Source of the DNA: Botryllus schlosseri
Lineage: Eukaryota
Assembly: GCA_051294905.1 (NCBI GenBank)
Contig: CM119371.1
Location: 19,036,001-19,100,000, forward strand
DNA length: 64,000 nucleotides
Direction of reading: 5' to 3'
This document shows positions 3,125-42,703 of this stretch, one piece after another (the first letter of the stretch is position 1; every line of letters begins with the position of its first letter). Below the pieces are notes generated by a model. That model did no database searches. It was not told the origin of the DNA and saw nothing but the letters and a program-made list of their open reading frames with translations. The translations under genes were made by a program, and so were the position numbers.

Positions 3125-3478
3125 ATGGCAACTAGTGCGATTATTGAGAATTACCTTCTCTACTATCATAACTTGACAACCCCCACACTGAGCGAAACGG
3201 AAAAATTCATCCACGGAGTACTAGATTTCTATGTACATGGACAAAACGTGAGCCGTGTTCGAAAGTGTGATTTTACCGCATTGGTTAACTCGATTCGATC
3301 ATACGGCATCGACTGGAATGGGGTTTTTAGTGTCATAAGCATTGCGGCGATGAAAAGTGACATACGTACCCTAGCGGCGTACAGAGATTTAGCAACAGAC
3401 ATCTTGAATACTCACTACAGTACATTGATAATTGACTGGGTAAGAAGAAAATTCATTCGTGTCGTTTGTCACTTGTGA
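3125..3478 (+). CDS. Polinton hypothetical protein, 117 aa
   Basis: ATG-initiated ORF with ordinary globular composition between other element genes; no family recognised. Confidence 0.55.
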   Translation: MATSAIIENYLLYYHNLTTPTLSETEKFIHGVLDFYVHGQNVSRVRKCDFTALVNSIRSYGIDWNGVFSVISIAAMKSDIRTLAAYRDLATDILNTHYSTLIIDWVRRKFIRVVCHL

Positions 3479-3610
3479 ACGGCGTCCTTTCTTACAGAAC
3501 TCCTGTAAAGTTTATTTCAATCCAAGTCTATTCGCGCGGGTCATCAGGATTATACCAAGACTGTTAACTCACTCAATACCACGTGTCTAATTCTATAAAT
3601 ATCGACGGGT

Positions 3611-4252
3611 TTGTTGATGACTCCCACTTTATCAAACGACATGACATCGAATAGCGTCAACACTATGCAAGTCGGAGCAACTTCAAATTTTCACGTCGGC
3701 GTCAAATTCGTCTCATCACCCAAAAGAGGCGGCGTTAGCCAATATCTCAAAGGTATATTCGTCGACGGCAATAACGAAGAGATATCTTTCACGTGTTTCA
3801 ATCGTGAATTGTTCGGGGTCATTGAGAAAGCATTCTCCAAACGAAAAAAACTCATGGTCAAATCCGGTTGGGTTCAAATTGATAAATTTACTGGAAAACC
3901 CGCTGTATTACTTGGTCGGGCTTCGTCAGTAACTCTACATGGAAAATCGAGACATACGACTGAAGAATACCCATTATTGACCTGTGAATCGGTATACGGA
4001 AATAAAGATGAATACGTCTCGATCGCCGCTACTTGTGTTTCTCGAGAGGAGAAGATGGTCAATTCTGACGCCGGAAAGGAGTTGAAATTATACAGTTTTA
4101 CATTGAAGGATGATACTGGCGAGGTGGTTTTGGATCAATGGAACAAAGCCTCGCTCGTACCCGGGAAGAAATATCAACTCACTCGTGTTAAAAACTGTGT
4201 CGGCAGCTTGAAAATCGATTCGTTAACTAGACTTGTTGAATTGAAAGAATAG
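3611..4252 (+). CDS. Putative tandem OB-fold ssDNA-binding protein (RPA/SSB-like)
   Basis: LYSFTLKDDTGEVVLDQW and GIFVDGNNEEISFTCF match the OB-fold L-x-D-x-T-G-x-I-x-L-x-x-W pattern. TATAAATA at ~3594. The real start is probably ATG 3617 or 3641. Confidence 0.65.
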   Translation: MLMTPTLSNDMTSNSVNTMQVGATSNFHVGVKFVSSPKRGGVSQYLKGIFVDGNNEEISFTCFNRELFGVIEKAFSKRKKLMVKSGWVQIDKFTGKPAVLLGRASSVTLHGKSRHTTEEYPLLTCESVYGNKDEYVSIAATCVSREEKMVNSDAGKELKLYSFTLKDDTGEVVLDQWNKASLVPGKKYQLTRVKNCVGSLKIDSLTRLVELKE

Positions 4253-4919: not shown

Positions 4920-5175
4920 CAATAGCCGCTCGCCACCCCCGCCATAAGACGAAAACGTTAGCTCGCCACCCCCGCCATAAGAAATAAGAGCCGCTCGCCA
5001 CCCCCGGTTTTCCAGCCGCTCGCCACCCCCGCCATAAGAAATAAGAGCCGCTCACCACCCCCGCCATAAGACGCAATAGCCGCTCACCACCCCCGCCATA
5101 AGAAATAAGAGCCGCTCACCACCCCCGGTTTTCCAGCCCGTCACCACCCCGCCCATAAGAGCCCCTGCCACCCCC
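4920..5175. repeat. Polinton subterminal tandem repeats (~27-31 bp, core GCCGCTC(G/A)CCACCCCCG)
   Basis: About 9 imperfect copies immediately inside the terminus. Confidence 0.9.
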
Positions 5176-5866: not shown

Positions 5867-7695
5867 AAGTGTGGTTACCAATTCTGACGTTTTATGTGAC
5901 AATTTCCGTCGACAGCCGCCAGAAAAGCAGATTGTCTGATTGCGCTGGGGCATTTTCAACCCGTCTGCCAGCGTTCGAATATCGTTGGCATCCTGCTCTG
6001 TTCTTGTATCTTGTGGACAAACACACAATTAAGCTCTCGCTGTCAGAGTAGTTATTTTATTGTACTTTCTGTCATGTCAAAACAGTACGAGAGTTTGATA
6101 TAATGAAAATGTGTTAGGCCGATTACAATTCCAAATTTCGCGCGATAGTTCATTTGAAAATAAGGAACTAGTGAACTATATGCCCGCTTCACTCGTGTGA
6201 ATGATTGACGTCATCTATCATGTTTCCCCATGATCATTTAATTCAATCTCCTTGTTTATGCTATCACTTATTCTTTTTTCTTCTTGTTCTCTCGTTTTTC
6301 CGCACGAGATAGAAAAATGCTGACTCGGCATTTTTTCTAGTTACGACGTTTCAGTTTTGTCCGTTTGCTCCCATTAAAGGGATTTTTGTCCGTTCACCCT
6401 TATTATATCACATATTTACACTCTGCCAAAAGCAGCTTTACATCTTTTGTATGATCGTGGGTGGTATAGGGCCTTCGCACAACACCACTTCTTGTACGTT
6501 TGATTGCAGCAGCACGAGCCCTTTATTCCTTATATCGGCTGCTTTCATACAAATTACCACATTCCTTGTTTTGCTTCTCTTCGTTATCGTTTTGCTCAAA
6601 TGAACGAATCTCCTGTTCATTCGTTCAATGCCTGCTGACATTATCTGTCTTGCATTGTTTTCAGTCGTCATGTGGGTACAATATCTCGTTACCTTCATAT
6701 TTACAGTATTGAGGAGGCGTCCCCTTTGTATGTCCATGGGCGGCCTCCAATCCATTTTTCGAGACTATTGCTCTGTCGCACCTTTTCATGACGTACGTGA
6801 TTTCTTCAATTCTCATTTGCATCCCCATTTTCTTTCTAATGACGCCGCAAATTCCTTCCCAGGGATGATATCCATCCACTGAGTCATTACAAAGATCATG
6901 GCGATGATGAGACTCTTGAGTTCCGTCTTAACGCTTGGACTGGTCCCTTGTTGCGGTAACTTGGCCAGCCATTGGCTAATGGGAATCTCGTGATGAACGG
7001 GGTTCTGTGTTTGGTGGAGAGAGGGCGAGGTCCTTCGATGTAGGCCTCTGATGTCGGTGCGTGCCCGCACCTACCGTCACGCCGACGGACTCCTTTTCCG
7101 CCGGGAACTCTTTTTCTGGGGAGACGTGCATCCTAAAATCCCCAGACTCCTTGTCGGACATGACCGGGTGTGTATCCGGTTGACCGGCAATCGCTGCTTC
7201 GTTTGAACCTTTTGGGAAAGTACTCATTACTGTGGCTGTCGTCATGCATCTATGGGCCGATTCATTAAGGTTATTCGGACAAGTGCATCCACGAAAGCAT
7301 TTAGGACCAGTTTTCTCGTGCAGGTCTTTATTTTCGCCAGCGGGGATTCCACGCTCGACGTCTTCATTAACGGTGTTAGCAGGCATTCCTGTCTCAACAC
7401 CAATAGTTTCCCATGGGTTCTGTGTGACGTTAGTTGCTATTTTCAACTCGTCGTTCGCACCAGTGGTGATTACCATCTCGGTACTTGCGCCAGCGGCAAC
7501 GGCCAGCGGCGACGGCTAGCGTGCCGGCTCGACGCTTATTTGATTTGCAGCTTCCATCAACCCCATCATCGGTTACAGTGTCGCGAGGACTGCTTCCGAC
7601 TTTGGTTCCGTCCCGTTGATCTCATGAGATCCCATCATGTAGAGTTACTAAAGACAACTCTTCAATCGCATTAGACGGTGTTTTCAACCCAATTA

Positions 7696-7974
7696 CTATG
7701 CTTGGTAATTGCTGTACTTGTTCAATGGAACGGACATACCATCAAAATTAATCTCTACCAAGGAATCAACTTGGGACGAGCCACCTATTCCTGTCAATTC
7801 CATGTCTATTGGTTGACGTTCCTCCCAGCTTTGTGGGTATTTAGTAATAACGACCTTTTTCATTATCAAATTGGGGATGCTTCCCGTGTCAGCTAGGAAT
7901 TTCGAACCCGTTATTGTATCAATCAAATACAACAATTGGCCTCCGAACAATTCCGTAAATCGGGCTGTAATGGG
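7696..7974 (-). pseudogene. Retropepsin-like aspartic protease remnant
   Basis: KFLADTGSIPNLI catalytic motif and LTGIGGS flap, downstream of gag in another frame, bounded by stops. Confidence 0.75.
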
Positions 7975-8078
7975 TCATCCGGCGTATCAAGAAATGTAAA
8001 TAAGGGTAAAGAAGAGTTATGTACAGTTTTTGTGTGTTTGGGGTAATAAATTATCTGGGAGCTGATTTACCGGATCAA

Positions 8079-9938
8079 TCAGCTCCCGCAAGCGATCGAG
8101 AGTCGAATACCTTGATTCAGTTCATCATCCGTCCAATATGAAGCATCATATCGACGTGGATGATCAGGGTATTGAGGTTCCGCCCAAGTCACTTGGCTAT
8201 TACCTCGGGACGAGTGTGCAGGCGGTAAAGATGGCTTTGTGTCACGCACTTCCTTTGTTTCCTGGTTCCTAGGGCGCGTCTCTTGTTCATCCAGAAACTC
8301 GGAGTTACAGACGAGTTGTAGTTCCTCCGCAACGTCCCGCCAGGTTTTCTCTTCTTCCCAGCCTCGTAACATCAGTCTGAGCGCTTCTGGAAGTCGTTGT
8401 CGTAAATTTCGGAAAAGACGCAATCCATCCGGATTATCCTCAATAAGACTATCCATGTCTATTTCTAGTTGCTTCAAAGCGCTATTCAGCATAGGTAGCG
8501 GCTCTTCCTCCCAGCGATAATTTCTGCGGAAATCCCCAATGATCTTTTCATCATTTACCAAACCCTGGGGATTGGATAAGGAAAGGGATCGCATCACCGA
8601 TTCCCATTCTGCTTCCCCCGAATTGGTATTAAAAAAATTTCCCAGTTGAGTAGCCTGCTTGTGTCTGTCAGCCGCCCGCAATTTCTTCTGCATCGCATTA
8701 GCCAATATAACATCCACATCCGTATTCCCGGAACCGTGGCGTATTCGTCGCATCGAATTTTCCATCCACTTTAGCAGTGGCATGTCCCCAGGATCCATCA
8801 TAAGCTGAAGCATTTCTTTTTCTGATTGGATTTTAACAGGCACGTTGAGCATTGGGACCGTAACACCGGGATATTGGTGCGGCTGTTGTTGGCCTGACCG
8901 TCTGCTACGATCGTTAGGAGTAGAGGTAAAACGAGGCATATTTGGATAAATCGGGTTGTTAGGTCGGCCCTCATCCGTATCTTCAACCGACGAATTTTCG
9001 GAACTTCGTAGAGACTTCCCAATCTCCTTTATTTCTCGTGCCAATAATCGCATACGAGCATCGTAATCGTCGTCTCCAGTGTCTTCCGCATCTTTTCTAG
9101 TATCACCCTGTTCTTGGAAGGTCACCCGTCGGGATTCGCCATCCGCACTTCCCGCTCGTCTTCGAGAATCCTTCTCCTCGTTACGACGTTCCTGCCATCC
9201 TCGATACCCCATATATTTATCTAAGGGATTCTTTTTTGGTTTTGACGCAACGGGGGGCTCGAGCTCGTTCCCCCCAAGTCTAATGAAGCTTGGCATTTCC
9301 ACGGGGTTTTGCTTATTCTGTTTGGCGCGTGCACCACTTCCCACGTGGAAGCATGTTGCCGTTCCCATTCGAGAGTCTGACAACGAGGTCGAGTCAGAAC
9401 GTGGTAGCTTAGGATAGACGGCCGTTACAGTATGACAATCCAGACCCTTGCGAACCGTCATCGTTGGTCCTTGTTTTACGTTACCAGACGGCTGCTCAGT
9501 GAGAGGAACGTAAGCCGGAGGGTCATATTCTGGTGCAGTTGGAGCTACTGTCAAAACGGGAGATTGGATGCTATCTCGTGTAGCCTGTGCATGCGACTTT
9601 CCGAGCTCAAATTCTGACGTAAGGATGTCATTCAGAACGTCGGTGGAGACCTTCCCGCTAACTTTTGTTGTGGCATCGCAAACAGCTTTGAGGTCCGCTT
9701 GAGCTTTTCGAACCTCTTTCTTTGCCTTTTCTAACCCTTTCATGGTCCCCGGTAGAGCTGTCTTTACTTCTTTTAATAGCTCCGTTTGTTCAGCCACATC
9801 TTTAGCAAGTTGTCTTTCTTGTCGCCGTACATCTTCATGGCGTTTTTGTGTTGCTTTAAGCAAGGTAATGCCCTGTTTAAGTTCATTTGTCGCTTCTGAC
9901 GACCTTTTCCTTTTAAATGCTTTCAATATTCTTCGCAT
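8079..9938 (-). CDS. gag: Gag-like protein, 619 aa, of LTR retroelement origin
   Basis: Lies between a PBS and a protease. Basic N-terminus, coiled coil, PTAP/PPAY/YPKL motifs and a capsid-like helical region (LKWME..EWESVM..RLPEALRLML..TWRDV). No CCHC knuckle. Confidence 0.75.
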   Translation of the reverse strand: MRRILKAFKRKRSSEATNELKQGITLLKATQKRHEDVRRQERQLAKDVAEQTELLKEVKTALPGTMKGLEKAKKEVRKAQADLKAVCDATTKVSGKVSTDVLNDILTSEFELGKSHAQATRDSIQSPVLTVAPTAPEYDPPAYVPLTEQPSGNVKQGPTMTVRKGLDCHTVTAVYPKLPRSDSTSLSDSRMGTATCFHVGSGARAKQNKQNPVEMPSFIRLGGNELEPPVASKPKKNPLDKYMGYRGWQERRNEEKDSRRRAGSADGESRRVTFQEQGDTRKDAEDTGDDDYDARMRLLAREIKEIGKSLRSSENSSVEDTDEGRPNNPIYPNMPRFTSTPNDRSRRSGQQQPHQYPGVTVPMLNVPVKIQSEKEMLQLMMDPGDMPLLKWMENSMRRIRHGSGNTDVDVILANAMQKKLRAADRHKQATQLGNFFNTNSGEAEWESVMRSLSLSNPQGLVNDEKIIGDFRRNYRWEEEPLPMLNSALKQLEIDMDSLIEDNPDGLRLFRNLRQRLPEALRLMLRGWEEEKTWRDVAEELQLVCNSEFLDEQETRPRNQETKEVRDTKPSLPPAHSSRGNSQVTWAEPQYPDHPRRYDASYWTDDELNQGIRLSIACGS

Positions 9939-9946
9939 AGTACTCT

Positions 9947-10213
9947 CTATTGACTAGAGGAAGTACTGTTGACAAATATTAGATCAGGCAAGGATGCGTT
10001 GAAAAAGACTGTAGGTCCTGGCGGCGTATTCGTGGTTTTGACGTAAGCAGTGGGTTCGCTGCTATTTGATCCCAAAAATACGTTCAACAGATTAGAAAAC
10101 GCTCCAGGCGATACGTGCAGATAAATTGCTGCCAATATTATCAGGAGAGATACAGACGAGGAAAGCAAGGATACAACAAGTACAAGTTTTACGATAGTCG
10201 TCTTAGAAAGCAT
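9947..10213 (-). CDS. Small predicted single-pass membrane protein, 88 aa, upstream of gag
   Basis: ATG 28 nt after the PBS, long hydrophobic N-terminal segment, three N-x-S/T sequons; stops 8 nt before the gag ATG. Confidence 0.55.
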   Translation of the reverse strand: MLSKTTIVKLVLVVSLLSSSVSLLIILAAIYLHVSPGAFSNLLNVFLGSNSSEPTAYVKTTNTPPGPTVFFNASLPDLIFVNSTSSSQ

Positions 10214-10240
10214 CGATTGGTCAACGTCTTAGCACCGGAA

Positions 10241-10260
10241 GATCCCCGTACTGGCCACCA
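10241..10260 (-). promoter_or_regulatory. Primer binding site complementary to the tRNA-Ile(AAU) 3' end
   Basis: Minus strand TGGTGGCCAGTACGGGGATC. The plus strand GATCCCCGTACTGGCCACCA matches, from memory, the 3' end of metazoan tRNA-Ile including CCA. Confidence 0.8.
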
Positions 10261-12459
10261 ATTTTGTTTTTATATTGCAGCTCCACAACGATTGTTATGC
10301 GAGTAGTCCACACTTGTTCGGGTTACTTCCTAGTAAAGCGTTGCCTTTCGTTTGCTTTAGTATCTTGACGACGTCTGTAAATGGTGATTGGAGCAACAAA
10401 AGTTGTAGGATTGTTTCTTCTCAAGTTGACAATGACCCTGGGGTCCAGAATTTTAATCTACCCTTATCTACTGATAATCTAGAACCTTAATACAACCAAA
10501 TACTCCAATCATTATCAACCAATTATGGACACAAAAATAGGGCGCTTCTATAAATATCGTCCCGCACGGGTCTATCAGAATACGAGTAAAAGCTAGGCCT
10601 ATAAATATGTCATGCATGATTGATAACTTTTCAATACTCCAAGGTTAGTTTACACATATAAATGTGAAGGCCTTTCCTGCCTCGACACACAAGCATATGC
10701 AATATACAAGAAACATGCCAATAGATGTTACAAAAAATACACTCAGAGTTCAAGTTGACCAACTTGCAGACTCGTGTATTATAAGAGTTCTCCAGTCTTC
10801 CAGCTGCAGGTATAGAACCGAAAGCAGTCCAGAAACCGACCCCTTGTTGAGTACTTTACATCATCAAGTACTTTCGTGTCGATTCGGGGATCGGGCATTC
10901 CAACAGAAGGCGGCGTTTGTTGAGGGTTCGTCGTAGGCAGAGATTCCGAATGCAATATCTCTATACTCTTGGCTCTTTTCATCTTTAGTTCATCGACTTC
11001 ATGGAGCTATTCCAGCACATTTCATTTGGCTTCTCCATTTCTGTATACTTTGCAACTTCGGCTAGCAGTCAATCCCATTTTATTGCACTGCTTTATTTCT
11101 GTATACTTTGCAACTGTGGCAAGCAGCCGATCCAATCATTATAAGGTCAAGAGCTTCCAGGGGGACATGCGAACATCACCCTTCAATGCCGAAAGACTTT
11201 AGAACCTCCCGCAATCAATCGTCAATATACTGTTTTGTGGATATAGTCTGATACTGGATGCTTCGTTTTGGGCTGTGTTTCGAGAGTGCTGGACTGCTGG
11301 TGGCTTTACATTGGTAGAGCCAGAAATTAGCCAACACTAGAGGACACATTCATGATGTCTGCATTGGTAGTCATTGGATATTACAACTGAATGTACAATT
11401 CATGTGGGCACCATACATGGCATGGATATGCAATATGCATACACACATGTATTACATACACTTCAGCTCACTGCAAAAGTTCGCATACATGGAAAAATGG
11501 TGGCGCCATTTTCGGTAAAGCAACCTGATGGTATAGCTAACTACTAACATGCATACGACAATTCCAGATAAGCACAAAGTGCTATCAACACAACGGCTAA
11601 ATCTACAAAGCATATTCGACTGTTCATTCAATAACCCATGCGCGAATTCGAAATACAAAATGGCGGCATTTTTGTTAACTCAACACGATAGTGAGTATCG
11701 GCAATTATAAAGTTCGAACACGTTCTGTTAATTTAGCGTTGACGCAATCGATCTCATGAAACGAAAGCGTGAACCCTGGGACTCAATATTCGACACATCA
11801 ATTTCGCAAAAACTGATGTGTGTATTTTTCTATTGTATCTAAGAATTTTTGTTTTTAATTCTATTGAGAGTTATTTAGGGTGATTATATCTGTTGCTTAC
11901 GCAACGGCAATTCTTCTTACTAACGGCTCATATGGGCAGCCTCATGACTACAGAAGTCACCTCTATTTTTTCGGTTACTATAATTCCTTACCTTAACAAT
12001 TTGGAGGGGCAGTGTAGGCATTCTCTGAAATATAAGATTTGCAGTGCCTATAGTTGAGAGCTTAAATTTACGACCTTTTACTTTGTATAGCTACAATCCC
12101 TGAAGCGCGGATTTATGCATTTGAAACTCAGTGACAATGCGGCTCGTTTTGGAAAGGCACGAACTCACACCGGCGTTTCCACGCTATTGAATTGTGAACA
12201 GTCCACCGTATTATATTTATGTTAGCATCTTGGCACATAAGGGAGGCTTGAGAACGGTACGACTTTGATAGTCGTAGCTTTCACACATTAAAGCGGATCA
12301 ATAAATTCGTAGCTCATCAAATTTCAACGTACACAAACTAGAATAGTTGCGCCTCAATGTAGGAATCGTCACATACATATGACTAGCGCATTCCTAACTT
12401 TCAAGTCCTTTTTCTAGATAGGGCGTCTTGCGCAAAGTCGTTATTGTTCAACAATTATC

Positions 12460-12494
12460 CGGCCCGCAACGTAATATGAGTTTGACACCCCTGG
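12460..12494 (-). repeat. Isolated hAT/Charlie-type MITE end
   Basis: Reverse complement CAGGGGTGTCAAACTC...GCGGGCCGG; partner end not found. Confidence 0.4.
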
Positions 12495-14453
12495 GAGTTG
12501 TCTATGCGGCTCGGACCTCATTGTCGCAAATACTTGGCGTTGAATTATTGTGCCAAAGTGCCTAAATTAGGACACGACGAAGCAAGCTATACGCAAAAGC
12601 ACAGCTAATGTTTTAGAACTTTAGACTAAGTGAAAAAAACCAATTGACCTTTAATATCAGTGTGCCAAAGTTTGAGTGTCCGGTGTGTTATAATCATGAA
12701 CTTATTTGCGGGAACATGCACAGATTATACCAGAAGCCTGATATATACTCCATTCCGAATCGAATCACTCACATACTTGATATGGACCAGCCCTAATCAC
12801 AAGTCATTGCGATGACCGGTAATGCCGAAGAATATAAGTATCACGGATTAACGTATTCATTTTATTTCCGCAATGTACGCATTAATCTTAGTAACAGTCG
12901 TGATGCTTGAGATCACTTGCGACTGCATGGTGACATGGCATCTGTCCTATAAAACTATAAACCTAGCATAGAACCCAGTAGTTTGCCACAGGCTAAATCG
13001 AATCCCCCAGTGTGGCGATTCCAACCGATACGCTGCAATGCGTCATATTATGCCATTGCAAGCAATGCCCAAAAGGATATTGGAATCAGATGCCAAAATC
13101 ATACGGCGAAGATGCCATTTTCAGTTTATATGTAAGGAACAGCTATAATAGCAAAAGGTGTCGACAGCAGGCTGATACCATAAATCATAAAATTCCAGAC
13201 CTACTGTCATTATGTGCCGCAAATAATTGTATTTGCAAACGTCTTTAGCAGGGATTGGCAGTACTTTAATAGACACAGGCAAAATTATGAGTGAGCGAGT
13301 GTTTGGCGGGCCGAAATTTTATTGTGTGGTATATTTTATGCTTATATCAGTATATTATACTATCTGATGCAATCTCAATCATCCCAACCGCAAGACACAA
13401 GCATTTATACTTCAGCAACGCAGAATGAATGCAATAATTGGTGCAGCTTGCTTTACGAGAGATCATCAACTTCTGACAATAGGTCAGGTGAAGCAAGAGT
13501 CAGACCATATTCCATATAGGCTTCCCAAATTCGTGATATTAGCTTGTTCTTTCATAATTTTGGTGTTCAAAACTATTGATCACATGCGTATATATAATAC
13601 TAAAATCAATGTAATCTTGTTTGCATTATTGGTCACTTGGCAAGGATAGATTTAAGGACGTACTCTCTATAGTGATGTGCTCCTTGTGTTGTTTTTGTCA
13701 TTAATTTCTACTGCATAGCCTTTCCGAAGGCTCACTTTATTTTTACAGACCAGTTATTTAGCGTTTATATTGAGTTAGTAACGAGTGTTTTAAAATTTAT
13801 TTGGTATGGTAGAGGTGTCAATGAAGCGAGTGATTATAATTAAGTCTCATATCATATTTATAAATGCCACGTTGATTTTCTCTCTCCCCTTTATAGGAAA
13901 GTGAGCATCAGTTTCTTTGTACTGTCAAGGTTTTCCTAGGCGCCGATTTAATTAGAATAAGTCTATATTTCTCATATATCCAGTTGTTATACCCAAAGTA
14001 GCAAATTCTAGTTGTTCAGATGTGACACTTAAAAGTGTTAGAAGATTAAGATGAGATACCTATTTTTTTGTAAAATTATTAGTCTGAGATGTTTATAGTT
14101 CAAGCAAAGTTGCCGTTTTATTTCACAGCTCATTACTCCATGCAAGTATAGCTACTTGATTTAATACGCGAACAGGGAATATATTCATCCTTTCGTTCTA
14201 TTGATTCAATGCTTCTGGTTACCAGCATAACATTGATGGCGATTCAGTTAGAGAGACAGAATTATTTTAAAATTGTTTTTCATTCCACTCGATTAGTCAG
14301 CACTGATGTATTATATTCCGCCCAGATATTCTTCATCACCTATTTCAACCTTTTTTGTTCTATGACGTCCATTTGTATGATAAAATGGTGGTCATGATCT
14401 TTTCTCATCAAAGTATTGGGCCAGGTGATTTCTCGTGAGGGGTCGGATACAGC

Positions 14454-14656
14454 CAGTGTTGGGATCAAGTCACTACCCTCGAGTCACGAGTCATCTCGAG
14501 CCATTGCACATCCTAACTCGAGTCAAGTCAAGCCAACCGATTCCTGAAGGTGACTCGAGTCAAGCCAAGTCACTCGTTTTTTGGAGGTGACTCGAGTCAA
14601 GTCGAGCCAAGTCAAGCCAAGCCACGAAAAAGTCGACCCGAGTCTTCCCAACACTG
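14454..14656. mobile_element. hAT-type MITE, 203 bp
   Basis: TIR CAGTGTTGGGA/TCCCAACACTG, perfect 8-bp TSD GATACAGC, internal GACTCGAGTC/CAAGT motifs. Confidence 0.9.
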
Positions 14657-17600
14657 GATACAGCCCCTGCCTATAGCTATGTGGCATAGGATCATACAAC
14701 TGATAACATCACGTATCAACGAGGGTTTTAATATCTTAGGTGACTTACCAAGAGACAATTAATTTGCTAAAACAAATTAAAAACGACCATCATTAAATGT
14801 CGTAATGCTATTGTCTATAAGATTTGACTAACTTGTCATTAATCTTAGTCAACTTCTTTTCAAACCCTGCTAGCTTTCTAGACTCTTCATGCTGTTCAGC
14901 TCTGTGTAGGGTGAACTGAATTTTCTGTTCTTACGCTTCGAGTTATATTCAGTTATGAGCGGAAGATCGTTGACATGCCTGCATCCGCCCCCCATCTTTA
15001 CGAGCGATAAATTATTTTCGGAAAGTAGGGACTGACGCACATCCGAACATTCATCAAGCAAAATTTTGTCGCTATCATTTGTACTACGGCGTGACTAAAC
15101 CACCCACTGCAATCAAATTTCACCATTTTGCTGCAGTTAATTATTTCCTATGAGTCAATCTACCCCTGCAACGTTTCCTTTCCCACCGCCTTCTGCAAAA
15201 TTATTTTGCAAAAGTTTCGCAATTTGATTCCAAATTCGCATATTGACGCATTACATAAACAGCACTTGGCTCTGTTACCCAATCCGCAACTTCCTTAGTT
15301 ACATCAATTATTTTTTCTCTTGTTATGCAATTCGTAGTTTTGCTAGTTATGTAATTCTTAATTTTACTTATTACGCAATTCACATTTTTTTTCTTATTCT
15401 GCAATTCGCATTTGTGCTTGTTACGCAAGTCGCAATCTTCGGCCAGTTCGCGCGAATTAAATTTACTTTCCACAGACTTAACCAGGGCCGAAATCAGAAA
15501 AAAACTTCTCCATTTTTAAAAACCCGATGTTATACTTGTAACAGTCACTGTTAACTCCCTAGCGCCCGAAACTACTAAAACCTACTTCGTTCAAAACGTG
15601 GTTTTTCGTGTATATAGTGTAGTTATCATCATATGTGTATGATTTTGACTCACAATATCGTCCTTTCACACATTATTAGTCAATCCAAGTTCTACAATTT
15701 AGCGGAAAACACTCCTGTTTGGGGCAAGTTGTCCGCAGAATCTGTCACGAGGTTCAGTAACTTCTCAAAGGGTCGTAAGGAGGTTAGGACTTGGGTATCT
15801 CTAACCACGCCACCATCGCCAATCGAAAGACAGCGAGCAACAAACCGGTGGGCTCGACAGCGGTAATCACCCACGGAATGCTAGGCGACTGAACCCTTCC
15901 TTGCCACGTAACATTTAGGTACAAAGCCCCTTCTGTCGAGCACCATAATACAACATCAATTACCAAGGTAGACTAATTCAGTAGGCTAATGGTGTTGTTA
16001 TTTATCCGTTCCAATATTCGAAGATAAATCTATATTTAGACTTCAATAGATTTTGGTGAACATTAAATCTTTCCACGGCCGCAAAACTTCAACGCGACAG
16101 AACCCACTATGCGCGACGCAACCGCACGCCCGCACTAATCCGCCGTCACACAACCCCGACAATCCATGCCAAGTGCAACTACCCCTCTATTCAGCTATTC
16201 CAAAATGTACCTTTTTCTCGTGACAGGCGCAAATGTTGCTATAGTACATAATACATTTACAATGTGTGTGGAATCTGCACAGTTCAAATTCAAAATATGG
16301 TCGACACCACGCATATTAATTCTAGTTATTGTTATTGTAAAACCATGTACTTTTTTGCCTAAACTGCAAAGGGTAAGTTGTTGATAGTTCGCATTCTACC
16401 ATTTTGAGCTATACTACTTTATGGCCTTTCAACAGAATACCTATTCATAACTGCCTGCACCGCACAAGAGATTTCCGGCAATTTTTGTGGAAATCGGTAC
16501 TTTAATTCAATTATTGATCTTACGCGCAGTCGTGACTGGTGCTATGTACATACTGTTTTGTTACTGACATATGTCAGAATTACCACTCTTCTTTGTGTAC
16601 TCGAATGCACGATGTAGCGCATTGTGTAATGCAATTTACTTACACTAAACCAAAGCCGCGAAACAAGCGGTATTCACTTCGTGTCGTTAGACAGCAGTAG
16701 TTGTAAAAACCAAATTGACAGAAGTGTTGGAAAATCAACTCACCCGACACAAAAACCTACCCACTGGTTCCGAAATATCTAATGCAAATGGTGATGCGGT
16801 ATGCACGCATAACCACCTGCATTCATGCAGCTTACAACACCGACCATGATAACAATTTAGAATTGCTGTTAATACTTTTTGGCCACAACTATTCACTCGC
16901 TAGCCAATAGTTAGAATTCACGAGTTACTGATAAAGCAGTAAGTTACCGAATGTTTGGGGGACCAGTATGGTAGACATTGGTGGGGTTACTTCTTAGTCA
17001 CTTGGGCAATTAAATTAACGACTATTAGTTCAGCGGGCCTTTCAAGATTTTTCTATTTATTAGCATATTCGTCAAGCAAAGTCCGCTGCAACAGATATAT
17101 TTTCCGTGAGCATTCAAAGCTAGTGTTTTCCGTAACTTTGCGGTTTGTTAGATCACGCAATTCTACATTATAATGTCAGCTAATTTCAATTTGGATTCAA
17201 AAGTGCACATTCCCACTGTGTGCGTTCACCTTTGACCAAAAGTGATCGTCAGACTGTGGTGTGAACACACACGTCTTCATAGATATGCCATTCCAATAAC
17301 GTGCATATTGCGTAGCTTTGTACTGAATGCTTAATATGTTGCGATGTGGAAAATGGAGGTTTCAAAGCTTCCATAGTTGAAAATAATATCGCTCAGACGG
17401 TAGACAGACATAAAATTAGCACCAACAATCTCCCCCACCTTCAAGAAATACAATTATTAATTCATTAGTTCAATTATTTCGTCTTTATTATTGACGATTT
17501 TAATTTGTCCTGCAAAGCAATAGCTGTTATTTACGTTTACTGGTTATTACGACGAGTAACACCCCTAATATATTTTCTAGTACTGTTTTTGCAGTACTTG

Positions 17601-18640
17601 GACCAACTCGATATTCTCAGCACTATGTTATGTGCTGTGGTCGTTGCGAATAGTATTATTATTATTATTTGGTCCCTGGTCTAATCGTCGCAAATATTAT
17701 GTTCGCAGTTGGCGTCCAGCTCTCCGTCACGTCGTTTCGGCCCAATGTTGTTGGAACATTCTGGCCATCCCCTGACGAAATGAATCTGGTTAATTTGGTA
17801 CTTACCTTCCGACCTTGATCTCGGGTATGATAGTCCGCCCTGGTGCTGAAGTGTTTCTTGCTTGTGACGTAGTTGTTCGTTTCGATTTTTCTGGCCACTT
17901 GTATTGTGTCAGGCACTTCGTCATGGTGTTGAGTTGTTGTTACGAGACGATTGATTACACGGATTGGTTGCGTATAGGGCTCAGTTTCGAACGTATTGCG
18001 CACCCGCGCTTTTAATACTGGACTTGACATTCTACGTAGCTCGGTCAGAACCGGGGTATCAATTTGGGATGATTTTATTCTACCAGAACTGAGCGGTCCA
18101 GACGATAGAACCGCGGCTGGAACCATGATCGCTACAATAGCACCGCTTGTGGCTCGAATATTGACGTTTTGGTCTATTTTGTTCAGGTGTCTCATCGGAA
18201 ATGCTTGTGGTGTTTATTCGTGTGACATTTGTGTACTGCCCCTGACGGGACCAAGCGCAGTACATTGTATGTCCTTCTTTGACGGCCTGCGTAGATATGC
18301 GTAGGCAAACAGCACAACACGTGTGGACTATCAGATCCCTACCGCCATGTGCGGGGCTAACGTCGTTTTTCTCGACAACTCATAACTCTACGATTCTCTC
18401 CCATTTGATCCCGTGCTATTCATATGGCAGGGTGGTTTTTTTCACTTGTTCCTTACTAGACCTAGCGATTCTTCCACCCTTAATTCAATGTATATGTGCA
18501 ACACTTCCAATCCTACAACACACCCACTTTCTGATGCAACAACTATTGCCGTAGTAATCTCCGGGTACTTATTTCACTAGTACCGAAAATAAAGCACAGC
18601 AATCGAATTGATCGAGTTTGTGCGGAAAAAAAATGCAAAA

Positions 18641-34139: not shown

Positions 34140-36055
34140 GACAGTGGATACAATCTGCACTGTAAAAAATAATCATGGGTGTACCCATAGTCTAGACCTG
34201 GTCCCACCTGAGTCATGTTGACATGGAAAAGGCCCATGATAACTTGTCAACATCCATGTAGACCTGTTGACATCCATGTTCCTACCCATGTCCTAATATT
34301 GCCTCAAATTGACCTTTCACCTCTAGTAATGTACATATACCCTGTGGTTAGATGTATTTATCTGTATTTGACATCTGGAATGTTTGCAAGAAAATCTGTG
34401 AAAAGTTCAATGAACTCGCTGACGCTGGCGCAAACTTGATGTTGAAACGCAATATGTCGCCAATGTATGATGGAAACTCATTATTCCATCGACAGATTCC
34501 CCAACGAAATGGATTGTCCACTTTTTCTGAAGAGTATCGAACTTCATCATCGGGTAGACATTCTTCGGATCCTATAATGAATATAAATGTCATTACCATC
34601 CATGCACTATTCAAGGCACATGGGTTGATAGAATACAGATGAATGGTTTCCAAGGTGGTTTAAAGTTGTATCAATCACAGCCAGTTAAGATGACAAAAAT
34701 CTATTAGCACCTCATTACATTGACCTTGTCTATGAATTGTCTCGGTATGTACAAAATCTACTTTTAACTTGACAATATTATGTATGCACACATGCACAGT
34801 CTTCCATTCCTTTACCTCTGCACTACTATACTATTTGATGCTGCGACCTACGATAATCCAATTATTAATAAATGGATGGATTAATGCACCGATGGGCGGT
34901 AAATCCAGGATTTGAAAACTTGTATTTTGGTGACGGAGTTCAACTTTGGTGATTGTGACCCAGCCAAAGGTTGTTTGTGTCTTTTCTGGGAATTCCGAAA
35001 ACAGAACTACTCGCTTTTTCATATCCGCAAGTAAAACTAAAACTAGGACTAATCAATCATCTTATAAAATTCAAAACTAGAATTGGAACTAAAATTACTC
35101 AATTTTAAAAATCCACAAATATAACTATAACTTACAACTATACCTAGAACTTTTTAAAATTCGATACTAGAACTAGTACTAGCAACCTTTTAAAATCAGG
35201 AGCTTACGAACTAAATCACAACTAAAAATATCAGTGGCTTTTGACTGGTTTTCCCGCGAGGCAATGGCGCACACTAAACTCACATTGTTTGTAGGGCTGG
35301 GCATAATGATTCGAGCACTTGAATCTGAATTGAGTATTATTATTATTATTGTTTTCAATACAACATCCATTGATAGTAAAATATTTATTCAACTCGAAGA
35401 CTTTTCGGGTGCCTCTTTTCAAGAGTTAACGGCACACTGAAGGGATTTAAACAGAATGAAAAGCAAAACCAGAAAGGCGAAGTATGACGCAACAATCAGA
35501 AATTACATACCATGGAGTCCGCAATGTAACAATGGCAACAATAACAAACTTGAAGTGTACGGTACTAGTAACATATCAATTTGAAACTAAACAATAACAA
35601 ACACGAATTAGAACGCATTATAATGGGAAATTTATAAGTTAAACATAAAATCTTTTTGTCCACATAATATAGACTTGGTCAATTGGATGATTGTTGATTC
35701 TAGGGCTTTCAAATGAAACAAGGATCTGATTCGCTCAAAAACTTGCGCAAATGACCGTACGGAGTTCGCACGACAATGTAAATCAGCCGCCAAAACCGAC
35801 TGTTACGACGATTACCAAGCATACGCTTCGGCCAACATTTAAGTGAGAACCCTTCTTGTGCTCAAATTTATAATGACCAAATGTTTACTGTCATTGCGCG
35901 AGGCAGATCCTTGTTTCATTTGAAAGCCCTAGAGAATGAACAATCATCCAATTGACCAAGCCTATTTTATGTAAACAAAAATATTTTCTGTATAACTTAC
36001 AAATTTCCCATTCGCGCGTTCTAATTCGTGTTTGTTATTGTTTAGTTTCAAATTG

Positions 36056-37204
36056 GGTTGCCAGTAAACTCGCCCCAAAGTAAATTCGGCCCGTCGAATT
36101 CGGCCCTCGGTCACTTTGGCCGTCGGTGAATTCGGCCGTCGGTAAATTCGGCCGTCGGTAAATTCGGCCCTCGGTAAATTCGGCCAGGGCCAGAGTAACA
36201 ATAACAGTTACAATACCATTACCTGACCTGAACCCTAACCCTAATCCTAACCTAACTCTAATCCTAACCTAACCCTAATCCTAACCTAACCCTACTCTTA
36301 ACCGAACCCTAATCCTAACCCTAATCCTAACGTAACCCTAATCCTAACCTAACCTAACCCTAATCCTAACCCTAACATAATGCAAACCCTAACGCTAATC
36401 CTAACCCTAAACGTAACCCCTAACCTCCAAATCACTTGATAATATTATAATTATGTAATATAATACACATTATTAGTTATTAGGTTTAGGGTTAGGATTA
36501 GCGTTAGGGTTAGGATTAGGGTTAGGATTAGGATTAGGGTTAGGATTAGGGTTAGGTCAGGTTAGGATCAGGGTTAGGTTAGGATTAAGGTTAGGTTAGG
36601 ATTAGGGTTAGGTTAGGATTAGGGTTAGGGTTAGATTAGGGTTAGGTTAGAATTAGGATTAGTGTTAGGGTTCAGGTTAGATAATATTATAATTATGTAA
36701 TATAATACACATTATTAGTTCGTAATACAATTTCACACAATGTTCTCCGAGGGCCGAATATACCGATTGAATTCGGCTGTCGGTAAATTCGGCCCCGTAA
36801 ACATCGGCATATATATATACATATATATATTTATGCGCATACCCTGTTCCCCAAATCACTTGATAATAATATAATTATGAAATTAATTCACATTAATAGT
36901 TGGTAATACATTTTTATAAAAAATTCTCCGAGGGCAGAATTGACCAAGTAACCAGTGAATTGACCGGTGAATTCGGCCGTCGGTAAATTCGGTCCCCGTG
37001 AATATCCGCGCTATCTCCCGTGATTACGCGATCTACGCATACCCTGACATCCAAATCACTTAATAATAGTATAATTATGTAATTAATTCATGTTAACGGT
37101 TGGTAATACATCTTAATACAATATTCTAGGTGGGCCGAATTTACTGATGTAATGGCCGAATTTGCCTGGGCCGAATTTACTTTGGGGCGAGTTTACTGGC
37201 AACC
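36056..37204. mobile_element. Non-autonomous TIR element with internal tandem and telomere-like repeats
   Basis: 37-bp perfect TIR GGTTGCCAGTAAACTCGCCCCAAAGTAAATTCGGCCC, 8-bp TSD TCAAATTG, 15-bp AAATTCGGCCGTCGG repeats. Confidence 0.92.
36221..36680. repeat. Degenerate telomere-like arrays: (CCCTAA/CCTAA)n 36221-36426, then (TTAGGG/TTAGG)n 36480-36680
   Basis: Seen directly. Confidence 0.9.
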
Positions 37205-39531
37205 TCAAATTGATATGTTTCTAGTACTGTACACTTCAAGTTTGTTATTGTTGCCATTGTTACATTGCAGACTTCATGGTATGTAATTTCTGATTGTTGC
37301 GTCATACTTCGCCTTTCTGGTTTTGCTTTTCATTCTGTTTAAATCCCTTCAGTGTGCCGTTAACTCTTGAAAAGAGGCACCCGAAAAGTCGTCGAGTTGA
37401 ATAAATATTTTACTACAATGGATGTTGTATTGAAAGCTATCTTCAAGTTCTGTACCACGAACCAACTGTTTTTATTATTATTGTAGTATTGTCTAGTAGT
37501 ATTATTGAGCAAACCCGTTTTGGCCATTATCAACAACTCACCTTATCCACAATCAGGAAGCTGCCGAAGCGTTCATTGAAAATGGTGGGGATGCCGGCCA
37601 CCCAGTCCAATTTCTGATTACCTGAATGAGAAGTGAGAGATCAGCTCAAGTGAAACACTCGAGAAAAAAAAACGTTTTAAAAATTAAATAAATGCAGTTA
37701 CAAAAATTAAATGAATGCAGTTAATGTTAGTGTAGTGTGAACTGCAAATATGAGCGTGGCAAAAAATATGCAAATTTTACCATTGCCTTAGGAACCAGAC
37801 AGTTTTTAAAATCGGCAACTTGAAATACCCTATTTCTATAATATCCTACCAAGTAATCAATGACTTTTATGAATCCGCAACTAACGAACTATAATACATC
37901 GAACTCAGCCATGGGCAAAGTGAGCCCCGCTATTTTGAGAAGCACGCGTGGCCATTATTTAAAATTAAAAACATAAAACGTACTTTTGAATATTGCTGCA
38001 TGGAATAAAACCATAAGCTGGATGAGCTGAGCTGGAACGGAAATTGATTTACTTTGAAACCTACTCAATAATATATCGCGATTACATAGCCTACGTCCCT
38101 CCCAAGCTTGTATGCGTAATCCAGATTTAAAATCAAGTCAATGTAGCAAAGTCGTAACAATTAGTCACTCCTTCCATATAGTTTGGTTCAGACCTTCTTT
38201 GTTACCATTATCAGAGCGCGTGTTGACGGAGACCTCATCATACATAAAGGGTGAATGGGCATATCATAAAAAGAATGTCGAAAGCTGAAATGCAAAGAAG
38301 GTATGGAGCACTAAACACAGGGCCGCAACTGCCGCATCCCAGACCCCTCAAAGGGAGAGGGCCCGACCTCGAAGCATCAAAAATTACTTCGTAAATGGAC
38401 ATAAATCCTATAATTTATGAAACTTCATTCAAATTCAAACAAAGATGTTTTGATAATAATATGGGTACCACTCTACCCGCAAAAACAGCCCATTTATAGA
38501 GATCAGCATTTCGGCGTCGGCCGTTAGCGCGTCAGGACACACCACGACGTTGACAATGACGTTTCGGCTAACAATTGACTGTGCGAAGTGTGCTGCAAAA
38601 AAGCTCAACGGCGAGGAAACCTTGACCAAAAGTACCGCCACATGTCGACCGAAACCGATATATATATGTCAATTTCATCAAGTTGCAACTGTTAGGATAT
38701 AGCCTACCTTTTAATGTCTTGATATAAAAGCCTGGATTACAGAGAATTCAAAATGTATCATGTTTAACATTATCTTGAATCACGAGGGAAAATAAATATA
38801 AATTTTCATTTCGTTAATTAACCGTACTTTTCTCAATAGGCTATCTAATATCAACACATCCACGGAGACGTATTTATTAACAATGTAATTCACTGCTTTC
38901 CATTTATAAATTAAATCAATACACTGGAGAATATAGCTAAATATGTAGGCTCGGCAGTCGGTACGCCAACTTATTTTCTATTACTGAAGTGGCCTGCAGA
39001 GAAAAATAATTGCCCACACCTGATCTAACTAAATCTGTGGAATCACTCAGGTAGGCTATTCGATTTTAACCCACCCTCGCGATGACATGTGTTTTTCAGT
39101 TATTGAACACCTACACAACTGCGAAGGTGAAACAAGAATTACTCAGTTCCCGAAACCCGCAACTAAAATTTGAACTAATCATTTTTCACAATCCGCAACT
39201 AGAACTATACTCGACAGATATTGACCGCCAACTAACTAAATTTTCAAAAGTCTCTTACTTACCCATAAATTTTTGTATTTCTATCAGAATTTCTTGCGGT
39301 TGCAGGAGACTGAGTGCAGAGTTCCCAAGTCTTTTCCAAAATCTTCGAGGTCAAGTCAATATCCAAGCAGGCTTGATTCAGGCAACATATTTTCCCTTCT
39401 TCCAAAATCTGAACATTGTGACAGATTTACATCATAGCTAATTAATCAAGTTCGTCTGCAGGAGCCTTTAGTACTATCAGTAGTCTCAATTTAAGCACAA
39501 GTCGGGCTTTTGGTGGAGGATATGTCACAAC

Positions 39532-39703
39532 CAATGTTCCCTCTAAGCTGCTAACGTGCGCAAATGCGCAGTGTTGACACGGTCTCTGCGCACAGAATAT
39601 CTAAGTTGCGCACAAAAATTCCGCAGTAATGACCTTTTTCTAGTCGTTACGCACTGTTGTCCAAGGGTCTGCGCAGACTCGTCAAAAATTAGAGGGAACA
39701 TTG
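39532..39703. mobile_element. hAT-type MITE, 172 bp
   Basis: 15-bp TIR CAATGTTCCCTCTAA; 8-bp TSD GTCACAAC/TTCACAAC (7/8). Confidence 0.85.
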
Positions 39704-41520
39704 TTCACAACTATCGTAAATTATTTCAGCAATATATATATGTAGTTTGTTTTGTACTATCATAGCACTCTGAAAAACGAACTCTTTGTGGGTTTTTTGC
39801 AAAGTAGCGGGTTGACTCGATCATGGCAATGTTGTGTTTGAAACCACTGCGTTAGGCTGTACCTACCAAGGGAGCATGGGTAAAAACTGGGTATATCTTC
39901 AATTCCATTTACGACACTGTCGCGGCGTGATTTAAAAGTTCTTCTCATTCTATCTTGCAGCATCTCTTCATCTGGCACCCTCTCTGACTTATTCCCTTTT
40001 GATGCTCGTCGACGCTAAGTTCGTCTTCGGAAGGGTAGATGTGTTGACTTTGCAAACAGCTTTCTCTGCACAAGTATAGAAGAGTCACGATAATACTTGG
40101 CTTAGCCATGGAAATATCTCTTCAGCGCAAAAAATAGCAACGTGCTTGTAAGAAATGGATTGCAAGGTTGAAATTAAAGGGGCACCACTCTAAATCTGAT
40201 GTGGTTGTGGCCTCTCAAGAAATAATCTATAAAAAACTCCAATTATGATAAATCCAATTACCATTAATATAATTATTTACTGCATTTTGATTTAATACAG
40301 TGTTCAGTATAACAAGTAGATCTAATTTCTTTTTTTATCTGGACCATACAGTGAAAATGTGACGTTTGTCAAAATAACCCCATGGGACATCACCAAAACC
40401 AGAGACAATTTGAAAAAACCAAGGTCATATTTGGAATAAGTTTCCTTCGGAAACCCGAAACAACTCTTCCAATATGCGTTCAGAGTGTAATCCTAGTATA
40501 GTTGCCTACCAATTTATTTGGGGTAATAATTACTCACTTTCATCGTCTGTCAAGGTTAGTCCTTTATCTTGAATTGCCGAGAGATCATTCGAGGCAAATG
40601 CCTCGTCGGAATATAGAAGTTGAATATACTGTCCCCGACATTACTCCGAAATACAGTTCTCACAGTTTCAGCTATCTCAGATCTGTGATCCACTGTAATC
40701 ACTTGTTCATGATCTCCGGCAGCCTCATTTTCAATGTGACAAATATCTCAGGAGTAATATTACTAACAACTGCAGTATGTATATCTGTAAAATACAAATT
40801 TACATCAGTTCCTTATGTTTCTAGGGTTTTCAAATCTTGAATCAAAGGATCGAGTATAGCATGACATCCCATATTTTTTAAAGCTGAAGTTTTTTCAATC
40901 ACCTCAGGATGAATATTCCTCCAGTTGGATAAATACTTCACTTGAACATTGCCCAGTACGGTACAAAATAAAAGCAAGGGAGCTCGTGTAACGTCTCGAA
41001 CTAGGCCTACTAGCGCTTTACCAACTTCCATATGATCTACAACTACATACAAATGGATACGCAGTAAACTTTGATCACTATGTGCAGCCGCTCGGCAGTA
41101 TATACCGCTATATACCGGTATCTGATTGAATACGGCTAAGTTGCTAAAGGTTCGACTATACGTCTATACCCAGTGACGCATTGCAGATTCGGCGGATATA
41201 TTACAACGAAGGCAGTCACAATAAATATATCAATACTTACCATCCAATCCACGGCTTAATACAGCAACAAGCAATAAACTTTGCAACTTTGACTAAGCCA
41301 ACCCAAGAAATGACCAACTCTATCAAACTTACTCTTTATGCCAATCCTTTTGAATCGAACGCTACACCGTACGCATGACTGGTCTTGTAACCAGATAATC
41401 CGGAGTCATTATGGCTCCGTAACCGAACGCCTATGTTTGCGTGCGATGATGTAGCTATTTGTGTGTTGCAATATATCCTGTGAGGATGTAACGATATTTA
41501 CTTGTCACTCAGCTGTAATA

Positions 41521-41655
41521 GCGATATAGTGAAATGGTAAAGCGTCCTGCTTCTTGATCGGTAGGTCATATTATCAATTCTCGGCCATGTCAGACCGAAG
41601 ACTAAAAAAATGGTATCCGTGGCTATCTGGCTCAACGTTCAGCATTCAGGGATAG
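41521..41655 (+). mobile_element. Degenerate tRNA-derived SINE fragment
   Basis: A-box-like TAGTGAAATGG, decayed B box, then CCGAAGACTAAAAAAATGGTA..CTCAACGTTCAGCATT resembling, from memory, the Meta-type SINE core. Confidence 0.5.
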
Positions 41656-41715
41656 CATGGTTATCGCATCTCAATCGTCAAAGCATCTCAATGGTGCAAA
41701 CGAGAATAACTCTGA

Positions 41716-42100
41716 TATCTCTCCCCCCTATCTCTCTCCTCCCCTTTTTCTCCCTCATCTCTCTCTCTCTCTCTCTCTCTTGCTCTCCTTTCTCTATGCT
41801 CCCTTTCCCTTCTTTCTCCCTCTCTTCTTTCTGCTTTATTCTCTATATCTCCCCCCTCTCTCTCTCCCCTATCTCTCTCCTCCCCTCCCCCTTCCCCTCT
41901 CTATCTCCTTTCTCTATGCTCTCTTTCCCTTCTTTCTCCCCCTATCTTCTTTCTGCTCTATTCTCTATCTCTCCCTCCTCCTCTCTCTCCTCACCCTCCT
42001 CTCTCTCTCTCCCTCCCCATCCGCTCTCTCTCCCTCCCCCCTCCTCTCTCTCTCTCTCTCCCTTTCTCTCAGTGACGATGATGATGATAATTATGATGAT
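41716..42100. repeat. CT-rich polypyrimidine tract followed by a short (GAT)n
   Basis: Seen directly. Confidence 0.95.
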
Positions 42101-42703
42101 ATCACTGAAGCTCAACGTGATTATCTTACTCGATAACCATGGACATGGATGCCTTTATCATGTCTAACATGGAAGTTTTTGTCATGTCAACATGAGATTT
42201 TAAAGTCATGTCGGTGTTTTCATGGAATTAACATGACTCAGAGCAAGTCATGTCATTTCCATGACAAAAACCCATGTTTTTTTTTACAGTGTGTGCCGTT
42301 TTACGTGACATTTTTCGTTCATCTCAGGCGAAAAGTCGCCACGCTGCCAACGATGAGACACCTGAAAAGCAGATTGTCTGATTGCGCCAAGGCACTTTCG
42401 GCCCAATAACTGGAAAGAAAAGTCTGCTAGCGGTCGAATATCATTGGCGTCCTGCTCTGTTCTTGTATCTGGTCAACAAACACACAAGTAAGCTCTCGCT
42501 GTCAGAGTAGTTATTTTATTGCACTTTTCGTCATGTGAAAACAGCACGAGATTTCGATATAATGACAATGTGTTAGGCCTAGTATAACTACAAATTGAAA
42601 TAAGCGGCGGCCAGCAAATGATTACATTCATAGTTGTACGTAGGCCTACGTGCGCACACAAAACAGTTGCAAGCAAATTGATCGTGTTTGCGCGACAAAA
42701 ATA

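Follow-up and report, generated by a model that had tools for sequence, protein, structure and literature searches.

What kind of element carries retroelement genes between the inverted ends of a DNA transposon? This question is raised by a 64,000-nucleotide stretch of the Botryllus schlosseri genome (contig CM119371.1, positions 19,036,001 to 19,100,000 of assembly GCA_051294905.1; hereafter the window), where a 12.4-kb element (6164-18584) is inserted inside a 5S ribosomal DNA (rDNA) spacer. We observe that Merlin-type ends enclose a deleted copy of an integrase-less retroelement gene set, whose polymerase polyprotein (Pol) ends in a Tpt1/KptA domain, and that the element has many near-identical copies. 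It is probably a non-autonomous deletion derivative of a retrovirus-like family without long terminal repeats (LTRs) or integrase, which has Merlin/IS1595-type inverted ends and is now moved in trans as DNA. This reading is preferred because the relatives have no integrase, LTRs are missing, and the end of pol abuts the inverted repeat.

Insertion site, ends and copies of the element

Most of the window consists of a 5S rDNA array (5193-61120, 70 Rfam 5S matches), in which two alternating 5S types, about 75-80% alike, form a dimer unit of about 1.02 kb. A preliminary description of this DNA had reported imperfect 23-bp terminal inverted repeats (TIRs), a perfect 8-bp target site duplication (TSD), a recent insertion into a near-homogeneous array, and ends fitting Merlin/IS1016, and all four points were borne out. 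The sequence GAAAATAA occurs on both sides of the element, and the array contains 32 empty sites, each with a single GAAAATAA (40-nt junction, up to three substitutions allowed). The inverted ends pair at 18 of 23 positions, the next-best 23-mer inside the element reaching 15/23, and no 23-mer in the rest of the window matches an element end at 17/23. The left flanking unit is 100% identical to two other units of the array and the right one 99.6% identical, so the insertion is no older than the last homogenization of the array. The 12.4-kb insertion is genuine and recent.

The 5'-GG ends, the 8-bp TSD and the short imperfect TIRs resemble the Merlin/IS1016 group of IS1595. A survey of Merlin elements, in the sections available to us, reports 5'-GG ends, TSDs of 8 or 9 bp, families with TIRs of 23-29 bp, and imperfect TIRs (PMC8101967), all of which suggests that the end signature of the element is Merlin-type. 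The element differs from Merlin in its length of 12.4 kb, in the retro-type genes that it encloses, and in having no DDE_Tnp_IS1595 gene; neither Pfam nor NCBIfam gave a match to this family in the element, as expected for a non-autonomous copy. The terms "reverse transcriptase" and "virus" occur 0 times in the same survey (PMC8101967).

The element is a member of a multi-copy family. We compared positions 6000-18635 with contigs or reads of 4 of 24 sequencing runs (X2, X15, X16 and X24), the listed evidence comprising 40 of 1083 variants, 15 of 85 joints and 24 of 1417 loose ends. Related sequence was found in 30/30 bins of the X2, X15 and X16 contig sets. Contigs of the right arm, the 8 kb beyond the retroelement genes, differ from the window by 0-10 letters in 317-870, apart from one 773-letter contig that differs by 37 plus gaps. 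The right arm has a depth of 918-1490 in X15, where diverged relatives have 65-72; read depth in a run is not copy number, but if the diverged relatives mark a single copy, there would be roughly 13-23 copies of the element. The depths of the left end (21-28) and the right arm (19-24) are level in X16, and the pol stop lies 274 bp from the left element end, which indicates that the pol 3' end and the inverted end move together. One X16 contig (contig 16) stops two letters beyond 18584. Structural variation also occurs, with a depth of only 2.6 at 14018-14439 in X16 and several internal skips in X15.

The retroelement gene set and its relatives

On the minus strand, the retro block reads spliced-leader exon, 225 bp, candidate primer site, 88-aa open reading frame (ORF), gag, protease, spacer, Tpt1, 274 bp, and element end (Table 1).

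Table 1. Features of the 12.4-kb element and its target site (window coordinates; RT, reverse transcriptase; NAD, nicotinamide adenine dinucleotide; MITE, miniature inverted-repeat transposable element).
Feature	Position	Strand	Remarks
TSD, left 8-bp copy (GAAAATAA)	6156..6163	+	5S rDNA spacer; aligned with empty sites
Left TIR, 23 bp, starting GGAAC	6164..6186	+	18/23 match with right end
3' region after pol stop	6187..6437	-	ATTAAA at 6242; low minus-sense RNA depth from family members
Tpt1/KptA NAD lobe (HMT motif, MNRRFVH)	6438..6675	-	Stop at same place as P0004; 88% identity to P0004
Tpt1/KptA RNA lobe (HHRH, CDRA, GHT)	6676..6915	-	Frameshift between RNA lobe and NAD lobe
Spacer remnant after protease	6916..7722	-	RT and RNase H missing here
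Aspartic protease (FLADTGS)	7723..7974	-	Homology stops at 7723, before C-terminal motif
Pol start, overlapping gag end in another frame	7975..8091	-	Frame change here; P0012 1-120 aligns to 8091-7720; relatives' profile 8076-7726
Gag, 619 aa	8079..9938	-	ATG at 9938; N-terminal coiled coil; capsid-like helical region at about aa 366-550; in-frame deletion near 8214
88-aa ORF	9947..10213	-	One strongly hydrophobic segment; three N-glycosylation sequons
Candidate primer-binding site, 20-mer, TGG start	10241..10260	-	Putative pairing with tRNA-Ile
Spliced-leader exon copy, exact 25 nt	10486..10510	-	225 bp upstream of primer site; ATTAAA at 10457, about 30 bp downstream
Right arm, 8 kb	10511..18561		Multi-copy at about 99% identity; nested repeats
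End relic of another high-copy repeat	12457..12494		107, 132 and 26 contigs with loose ends at 12457
Nested very-high-copy MITE, 203 bp, CAGTGTTGGG ends	14454..14656		Own 8-bp duplication GATACAGC
Right TIR, 23 bp, starting GGTAC	18562..18584	-	18/23 match with left end
TSD, right copy (GAAAATAA)	18585..18592	+	Aligned with empty sites

A six-frame Pfam scan of the element returned PTS_2-RNA as the sole domain (E 4.1e-9). The protease and the region downstream had been described as broken, which holds insofar as the protease breaks off at 7723 and several frameshifts interrupt pol in this copy; the downstream region is nevertheless a recognizable Tpt1/KptA domain. In X15, X16 and X24, most other copies lack the frameshift inside this domain; in X2 this is not so. 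When the protease-to-Tpt1 frame was used as phmmer query with stops read as X, 17 proteins matched, 11 of them best at the protease (three with weak RVP Pfam matches), which supports the protease motif, and 6 at Tpt1.

The earlier claims of a missing RT, integrase and transposase, of a missing 3' LTR, and of a decayed retro block all stand. No RT, RNase H, integrase or transposase was found by Pfam (six frames read through stops as X, and 67 right-arm ORFs) or by NCBIfam (14 window ORFs), and profiles built from the relatives picked up the element's protease and Tpt1 but gave no match for RT, RNase H or ExoIII. The same Pfam scans gave no tyrosine recombinase match in the window. The stretch 10256-11100 has no LTR-like counterpart elsewhere in the window, and the element contains no long direct repeat. 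As for decay, the cut protease and the frameshifts are accompanied by the loss of RT and RNase H and by the deletion of the gag zinc knuckle. The protease and Tpt1 motifs are about 330 codons apart in the window, compared with 683 and 801 residues in relatives, which have RT-RNase H between them, so the window copy lost these two domains by deletion. In the spacer after the protease, back-jumps in other copies at 7230-7362, with X15 depth up to 2334, suggest tandem duplications.

Among the relatives, P0019 (994 aa) comprises protease-RT-RNase H-Tpt1 and ends there, whereas P0012/P0020 (1122 aa for P0020) continues into ExoIII, residues 881-1120 of P0020 being a repair-type ExoIII/APE1 nuclease fused after Tpt1. 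P0013 is RNase H-Tpt1. A further five proteins have a Tpt1 of this type on its own or in part, and each either ends behind Tpt1 or is truncated at that point. P0004, 77-88% identical to the two window Tpt1 halves, is continuous across the window frameshift and has the same end point, and P0003 (Styela clava) joins the knuckle region of the gag relatives P0001 and P0002 to a window-type protease. None of the 19 proteins scanned matched an integrase family, and the absence of integrase and LTRs appears to be characteristic of the family and not the result of loss. The relatives show a CX2CX4HX4C knuckle and an RT YxDD motif, and their RT and RNase H match generic LTR-type families. For both relatives' RT, the best solved-structure match is 8r0s (titled Enzymatic polyprotein), ahead of Ty3 by a margin too small to place the RT; we take 8r0s to be the cauliflower mosaic virus enzyme. 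P0020 is encoded on a 361-kb contig and P0019 on a 246-kb contig. Locus scans found none of the relatives' loci in viral, metagenome and genome contigs or phage records.

The assignment to Tpt1 is supported by a fold model of P0005, which shows a two-lobe fold and gives 21 matches at E<=0.001, all of them Tpt1/KptA. The Arg-His-Arg-Arg tetrad, matched to solved Tpt1s, can be aligned in the two window halves and in the majority of relatives; Gln replaces the first Arg in P0016, and P0012 and P0019 have Lys/Arg variants near the last. This tetrad is described for Tpt1 in the consulted part of PMC6333775. Neither the Tpt1 half nor the protease yielded a homolog in a word-indexed search, a method weak by design, and PDB sequence searches with the same two regions gave none or chance-level matches. 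In the portions of PMC6182162 and PMC6333775 at hand, cellular Tpt1/KptA/TRPT1 shares the fold, the tetrad and the His-x-Thr NAD motif with the family domain. The latter differs in its fusion to retroelement Pol after RNase H and in being only about 20% identical to solved Tpt1s, and its NAD-dependent activity is predicted. Tpt1 enzymes remove RNA 2'-phosphates, some add an ADP-ribose cap to RNA or DNA ends that bear a 5'-phosphate, and their role outside fungal and plant tRNA splicing is described as open (PMC6182162, in the part available).

The preliminary description had noted that gag is open for 619 codons. The frame is indeed open from the ATG, yet it hides an in-frame deletion of the knuckle region. 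The two gag relatives, P0001 and P0002 (59-68% identity over the searched part), carry 329 and 318 residues that are absent from the window gag and that include their CX2CX4HX4C zinc knuckle, which makes the open frame the product of an in-frame deletion. The helical region at about residues 366-550 has Atlas features resembling those of Retrotrans_gag clusters (0.93; 124/256 shared), which is a lead only. The gag fold model is poor (predicted local distance difference test score 45.5), and fold searches with this low-confidence model gave coiled coils or nothing.

Upstream of gag, the 88-aa ORF, which has no Pfam or NCBIfam match, may encode a small membrane protein, judging by its predicted hydrophobic segment. 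Of the retroelement primer-binding site reported earlier, the 20-mer starting with TGG is present, and it may pair with tRNA-Ile. The spliced-leader 25-mer agrees at every position with the published chordate consensus and occurs once in the window and 0 times in 100 shuffles; a leader with the same sequence is listed for Botryllus and Boltenia in the accessible part of PMC3795323. Judged by this leader and by the relative from Styela clava, the host would probably be an ascidian of stolidobranch type. Its position at the expected 5' end of the genomic RNA is most simply explained by trans-spliced element RNA having been reverse-transcribed, which fixed the leader in DNA. The alternatives are a captured leader gene or a processed cDNA (complementary DNA). 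For 259 reads the capped 5' end falls at 10510. We rejected a transcription start of the element at this position, as the spot is the spliced leader and any trans-spliced host mRNA can give such reads. The leader region showed no unusual RNA folding (z -0.01 to 1.03) and no Rfam match.

Minus-sense RNA in bin 6000-6421 has an X24 depth of 4.5 vs 1.0, and at 6377 all 7/7 plus-class reads differ from the window, the sense reads near the pol end coming from other copies. The minus-sense pile at 10220-11063 stems largely from diverged sequences matching 10628-10661. Hundreds of minus-sense reads lie at 10600-10690 and represent at least two diverged sequences (loose ends 550, 384 and 151), perhaps 3' ends of related elements or of a host gene. 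Low gag RNA depth is not evidence of silence if a single-cell library reads 3' ends.

Origin of the element and possible mechanism

We hypothesize that the derivative no longer reverse-transcribes and that its DNA is moved by a Merlin transposase in trans, which would recently have put one copy into the 5S spacer. The parent may copy itself by reverse transcription within a capsid, primed by a tRNA, in the manner of caulimovirids, which have no integrase, and the spliced-leader exon could be a fossil of trans-spliced genomic RNA copied into DNA. Tpt1 might use NAD to cap (ADP-ribosylate) or clean the phosphate ends of cDNA or RNA before insertion by the transposase. More speculatively, an internal primer site in a TIR-bounded unit suggests a route in which excision would give a circular intermediate, from which terminally redundant RNA would arise, followed by transposase insertion.

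Several points weigh against this derivation. The link to Merlin is drawn from the end signature, as this copy has no transposase, and the absence of integrase is judged from the relatives' Pol ORFs, so the family may have a separate integrase or recombinase ORF. No envelope remnant was found in this copy by Pfam, NCBIfam or the relatives' profiles, and no end-to-end (circle) junction occurs among the 15 of 85 joints listed. The right arm resembles ordinary non-coding sequence into which repeats have nested. The P0020 RT favors 8r0s over Ty3 by a small margin (1.3e-22 vs 7.5e-22). Lastly, gag-pol is 1.5-3x deeper than the right arm (about 3400-3800 vs 918-1490 in X15; 28-47 vs 19-24 in X16), from which it follows that some retro copies lie in other contexts.

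This excess depth also suits a chance origin, in which an ordinary non-autonomous Merlin element captured host DNA containing a decayed copy, or the cDNA of a trans-spliced transcript, of an integrase-less retroelement or endogenous RT virus, the parts having separate origins and then being amplified. Such a capture would agree with the lack of a transposase in the element and with a right arm that is a patchwork with nested MITEs, and the leading position of the spliced leader in the block would be expected of a processed cDNA. Nevertheless, the short distance of 274 bp between pol stop and left end, the lack of a poly(A) tract there and the level X16 depths of left end and right arm weigh against chance capture, and the integrase-less relatives need another route into the genome; we consider this origin possible but less likely. 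A passive nested LTR remnant, as the preliminary description had proposed, is doubtful, since the relatives' Pol ends in Tpt1 or Tpt1-ExoIII without integrase.

The same description had offered a capsid gene retained by a DNA transposon as an alternative, and in its fuller form a DNA transposon would keep gag (a knuckle-less, Arc-like capsid) or Tpt1 under selection for packaging or protecting its own DNA. The 619-codon frame with its in-frame deletion, the higher identity to relatives of the capsid-like region (72-77%) than of the linker (37-39%), and the absence of the Tpt1 frameshift from most copies in X15, X16 and X24 could be read in this way, but such regional conservation reflects the parent lineage and not the derivative. 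Differences of the window gag from other copies comprise 2 silent and 6 replacement changes (8 sites among the 40 of 1083 variants listed; 28% silent expected), which fits neutrality, with no excess of silent sites (p=0.70). The chance of a 619-codon frame staying open is 0.2-0.45 at 1-2% divergence, and word sharing implies 1.3-2%. Moreover, X2 has a gag frameshift at a depth of 1445 of 5095, which may be an error in an A run. In this small sample of 8 differences there is no sign of selection on gag of the window copy, and with the knuckle deleted, a retained capsid gene is very unlikely. The least probable origin, that the ends belong to another superfamily (e.g. Mutator-like) or that a Gypsy/Troyka LTR element lost its integrase and LTRs, draws on the short imperfect ends, the lack of a transposase for classification and the generic LTR-type matches of the relatives' RT and RNase H, but the GG ends and 8-bp TSD fit Merlin (PMC8101967, as far as available), the relatives' Pol ORFs end without integrase, and the knuckle spacing and YxDD exclude Troyka.

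Among known systems, the integrase-less virus-like retroelements named in the consulted part of PMC12440569 are Caulimoviridae, Hepadnaviridae, Nackednaviruses, DIRS and HEART. Caulimoviridae resemble the relatives in a CCHC gag and a protease-RT-RNase H Pol without integrase, and the element in its candidate tRNA primer site; the differences are the animal host, the linear unit with TIRs and TSD, and Tpt1 at the Pol C-terminus. DIRS and hepadnaviruses have no protease, unlike the window element (PMC12440569, same part). Metaviridae (Ty3/Gypsy) share the order gag-protease-RT-RNase H and the CCHC knuckle of the relatives, which the window copy has lost, and a sporadic Exo_endo_phos domain reported for Kuafuorterviruses is a further likeness. 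Metaviridae and Troyka/Kuafuorterviruses are set apart by paired LTRs, integrase and 3-6-bp TSDs, and Troyka has a CX2CX8-10HX4C knuckle and xADD in place of CX2CX4HX4C and YxDD (PMC12440569 and PMC11673190, in the parts consulted). We rejected Troyka/Kuafuorterviruses, as none of their CG..CG LTR ends, 3-bp TSD, CX2CX8-10HX4C and xADD was found, and likewise a Gypsy LTR retrotransposon, as there are no paired LTRs with a 4-6-bp TSD and no integrase after RNase H in the window or in P0012, P0013, P0019 and P0020. Teratorn, a piggyBac-herpesvirus fusion, likewise has a virus-like gene set within DNA-transposon ends, but it involves another virus type and transposase and no reverse transcription. 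Cassandra, Helenus and Ajax, likewise non-autonomous retroelements, have a piece derived from a small RNA ahead of the primer site; they are terminal-repeat retrotransposons in miniature with paired LTRs and 5S or tRNA pieces, whereas the element has a single spliced-leader exon inside TIRs (PMC10886601, in part).

The design of the proposed parent, with a Tpt1-ended, integrase-less Pol and Merlin-type ends, appears to be undescribed, provisionally. The titles and abstract openings searched contained nothing joining Tpt1/KptA to a retroelement Pol (Repbase, subscription journals and bioRxiv supplements being outside the scope), no animal caulimovirid-like elements, and no spliced leader within a tunicate retroelement; no search was aimed at Merlin combined with gag or RT, so "not described" is provisional. 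The novelty lies in the parent family. The window copy is a degraded member, weaker as evidence than an intact element would be, and shows the Tpt1-ended, integrase-less Pol lineage together with Merlin-type ends and not the transposase. What it contributes is the non-autonomous form, the spliced leader, a small putative membrane ORF and a view of how broad the Tpt1-ended Pol lineage is.

On the established view, LTR retroelements arose when an RT was joined to an Asp-Asp-Glu (DDE) transposase. If the derivation from such a parent is correct, virus-type gag-pol with Merlin transposase ends and no LTRs would be a second RT-DDE union, which would blur the boundary between class I and class II, and one family would use both modes of movement. 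Tpt1 in Pol would also give a concrete, testable role to an enzyme whose job beyond fungal and plant tRNA splicing is open. A wider proposal, for which we see the case as evenly balanced, is that tunicates and, judging by divergent relatives, other eukaryotes carry undescribed RT elements in which Pol ends in an active Tpt1 instead of an integrase, the genomic RNA receives a spliced leader by trans-splicing, and a Merlin DDE transposase working on the inverted ends inserts the cDNA; the 12.4-kb element would be their MITE-like, non-autonomous offspring, spreading only as a DNA transposon.

Right arm and neighboring repeats

No Pfam or NCBIfam match above cut-off was found in the right arm. A 182-codon stop-free frame near the right end (17665-18213, minus strand) has no family match, is longer than in 99/100 base shuffles, and may be the remnant of an accessory gene. 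The end relic in the right arm is presumably hAT-like.

Elsewhere in the window, several 5S array copies have internal deletions, and a GC-rich tandem repeat (4924-5160) lies at the left edge of the array. The array contains a second insertion of 8.1 kb (34158-42291) with inverted ends CACTGTAAAAAA, which we take to be CACTA-like. This insertion includes inner facing arrays of AACCCT and TTAGGG at 36231-36695 and a long TC-rich simple repeat at 41731-42070.

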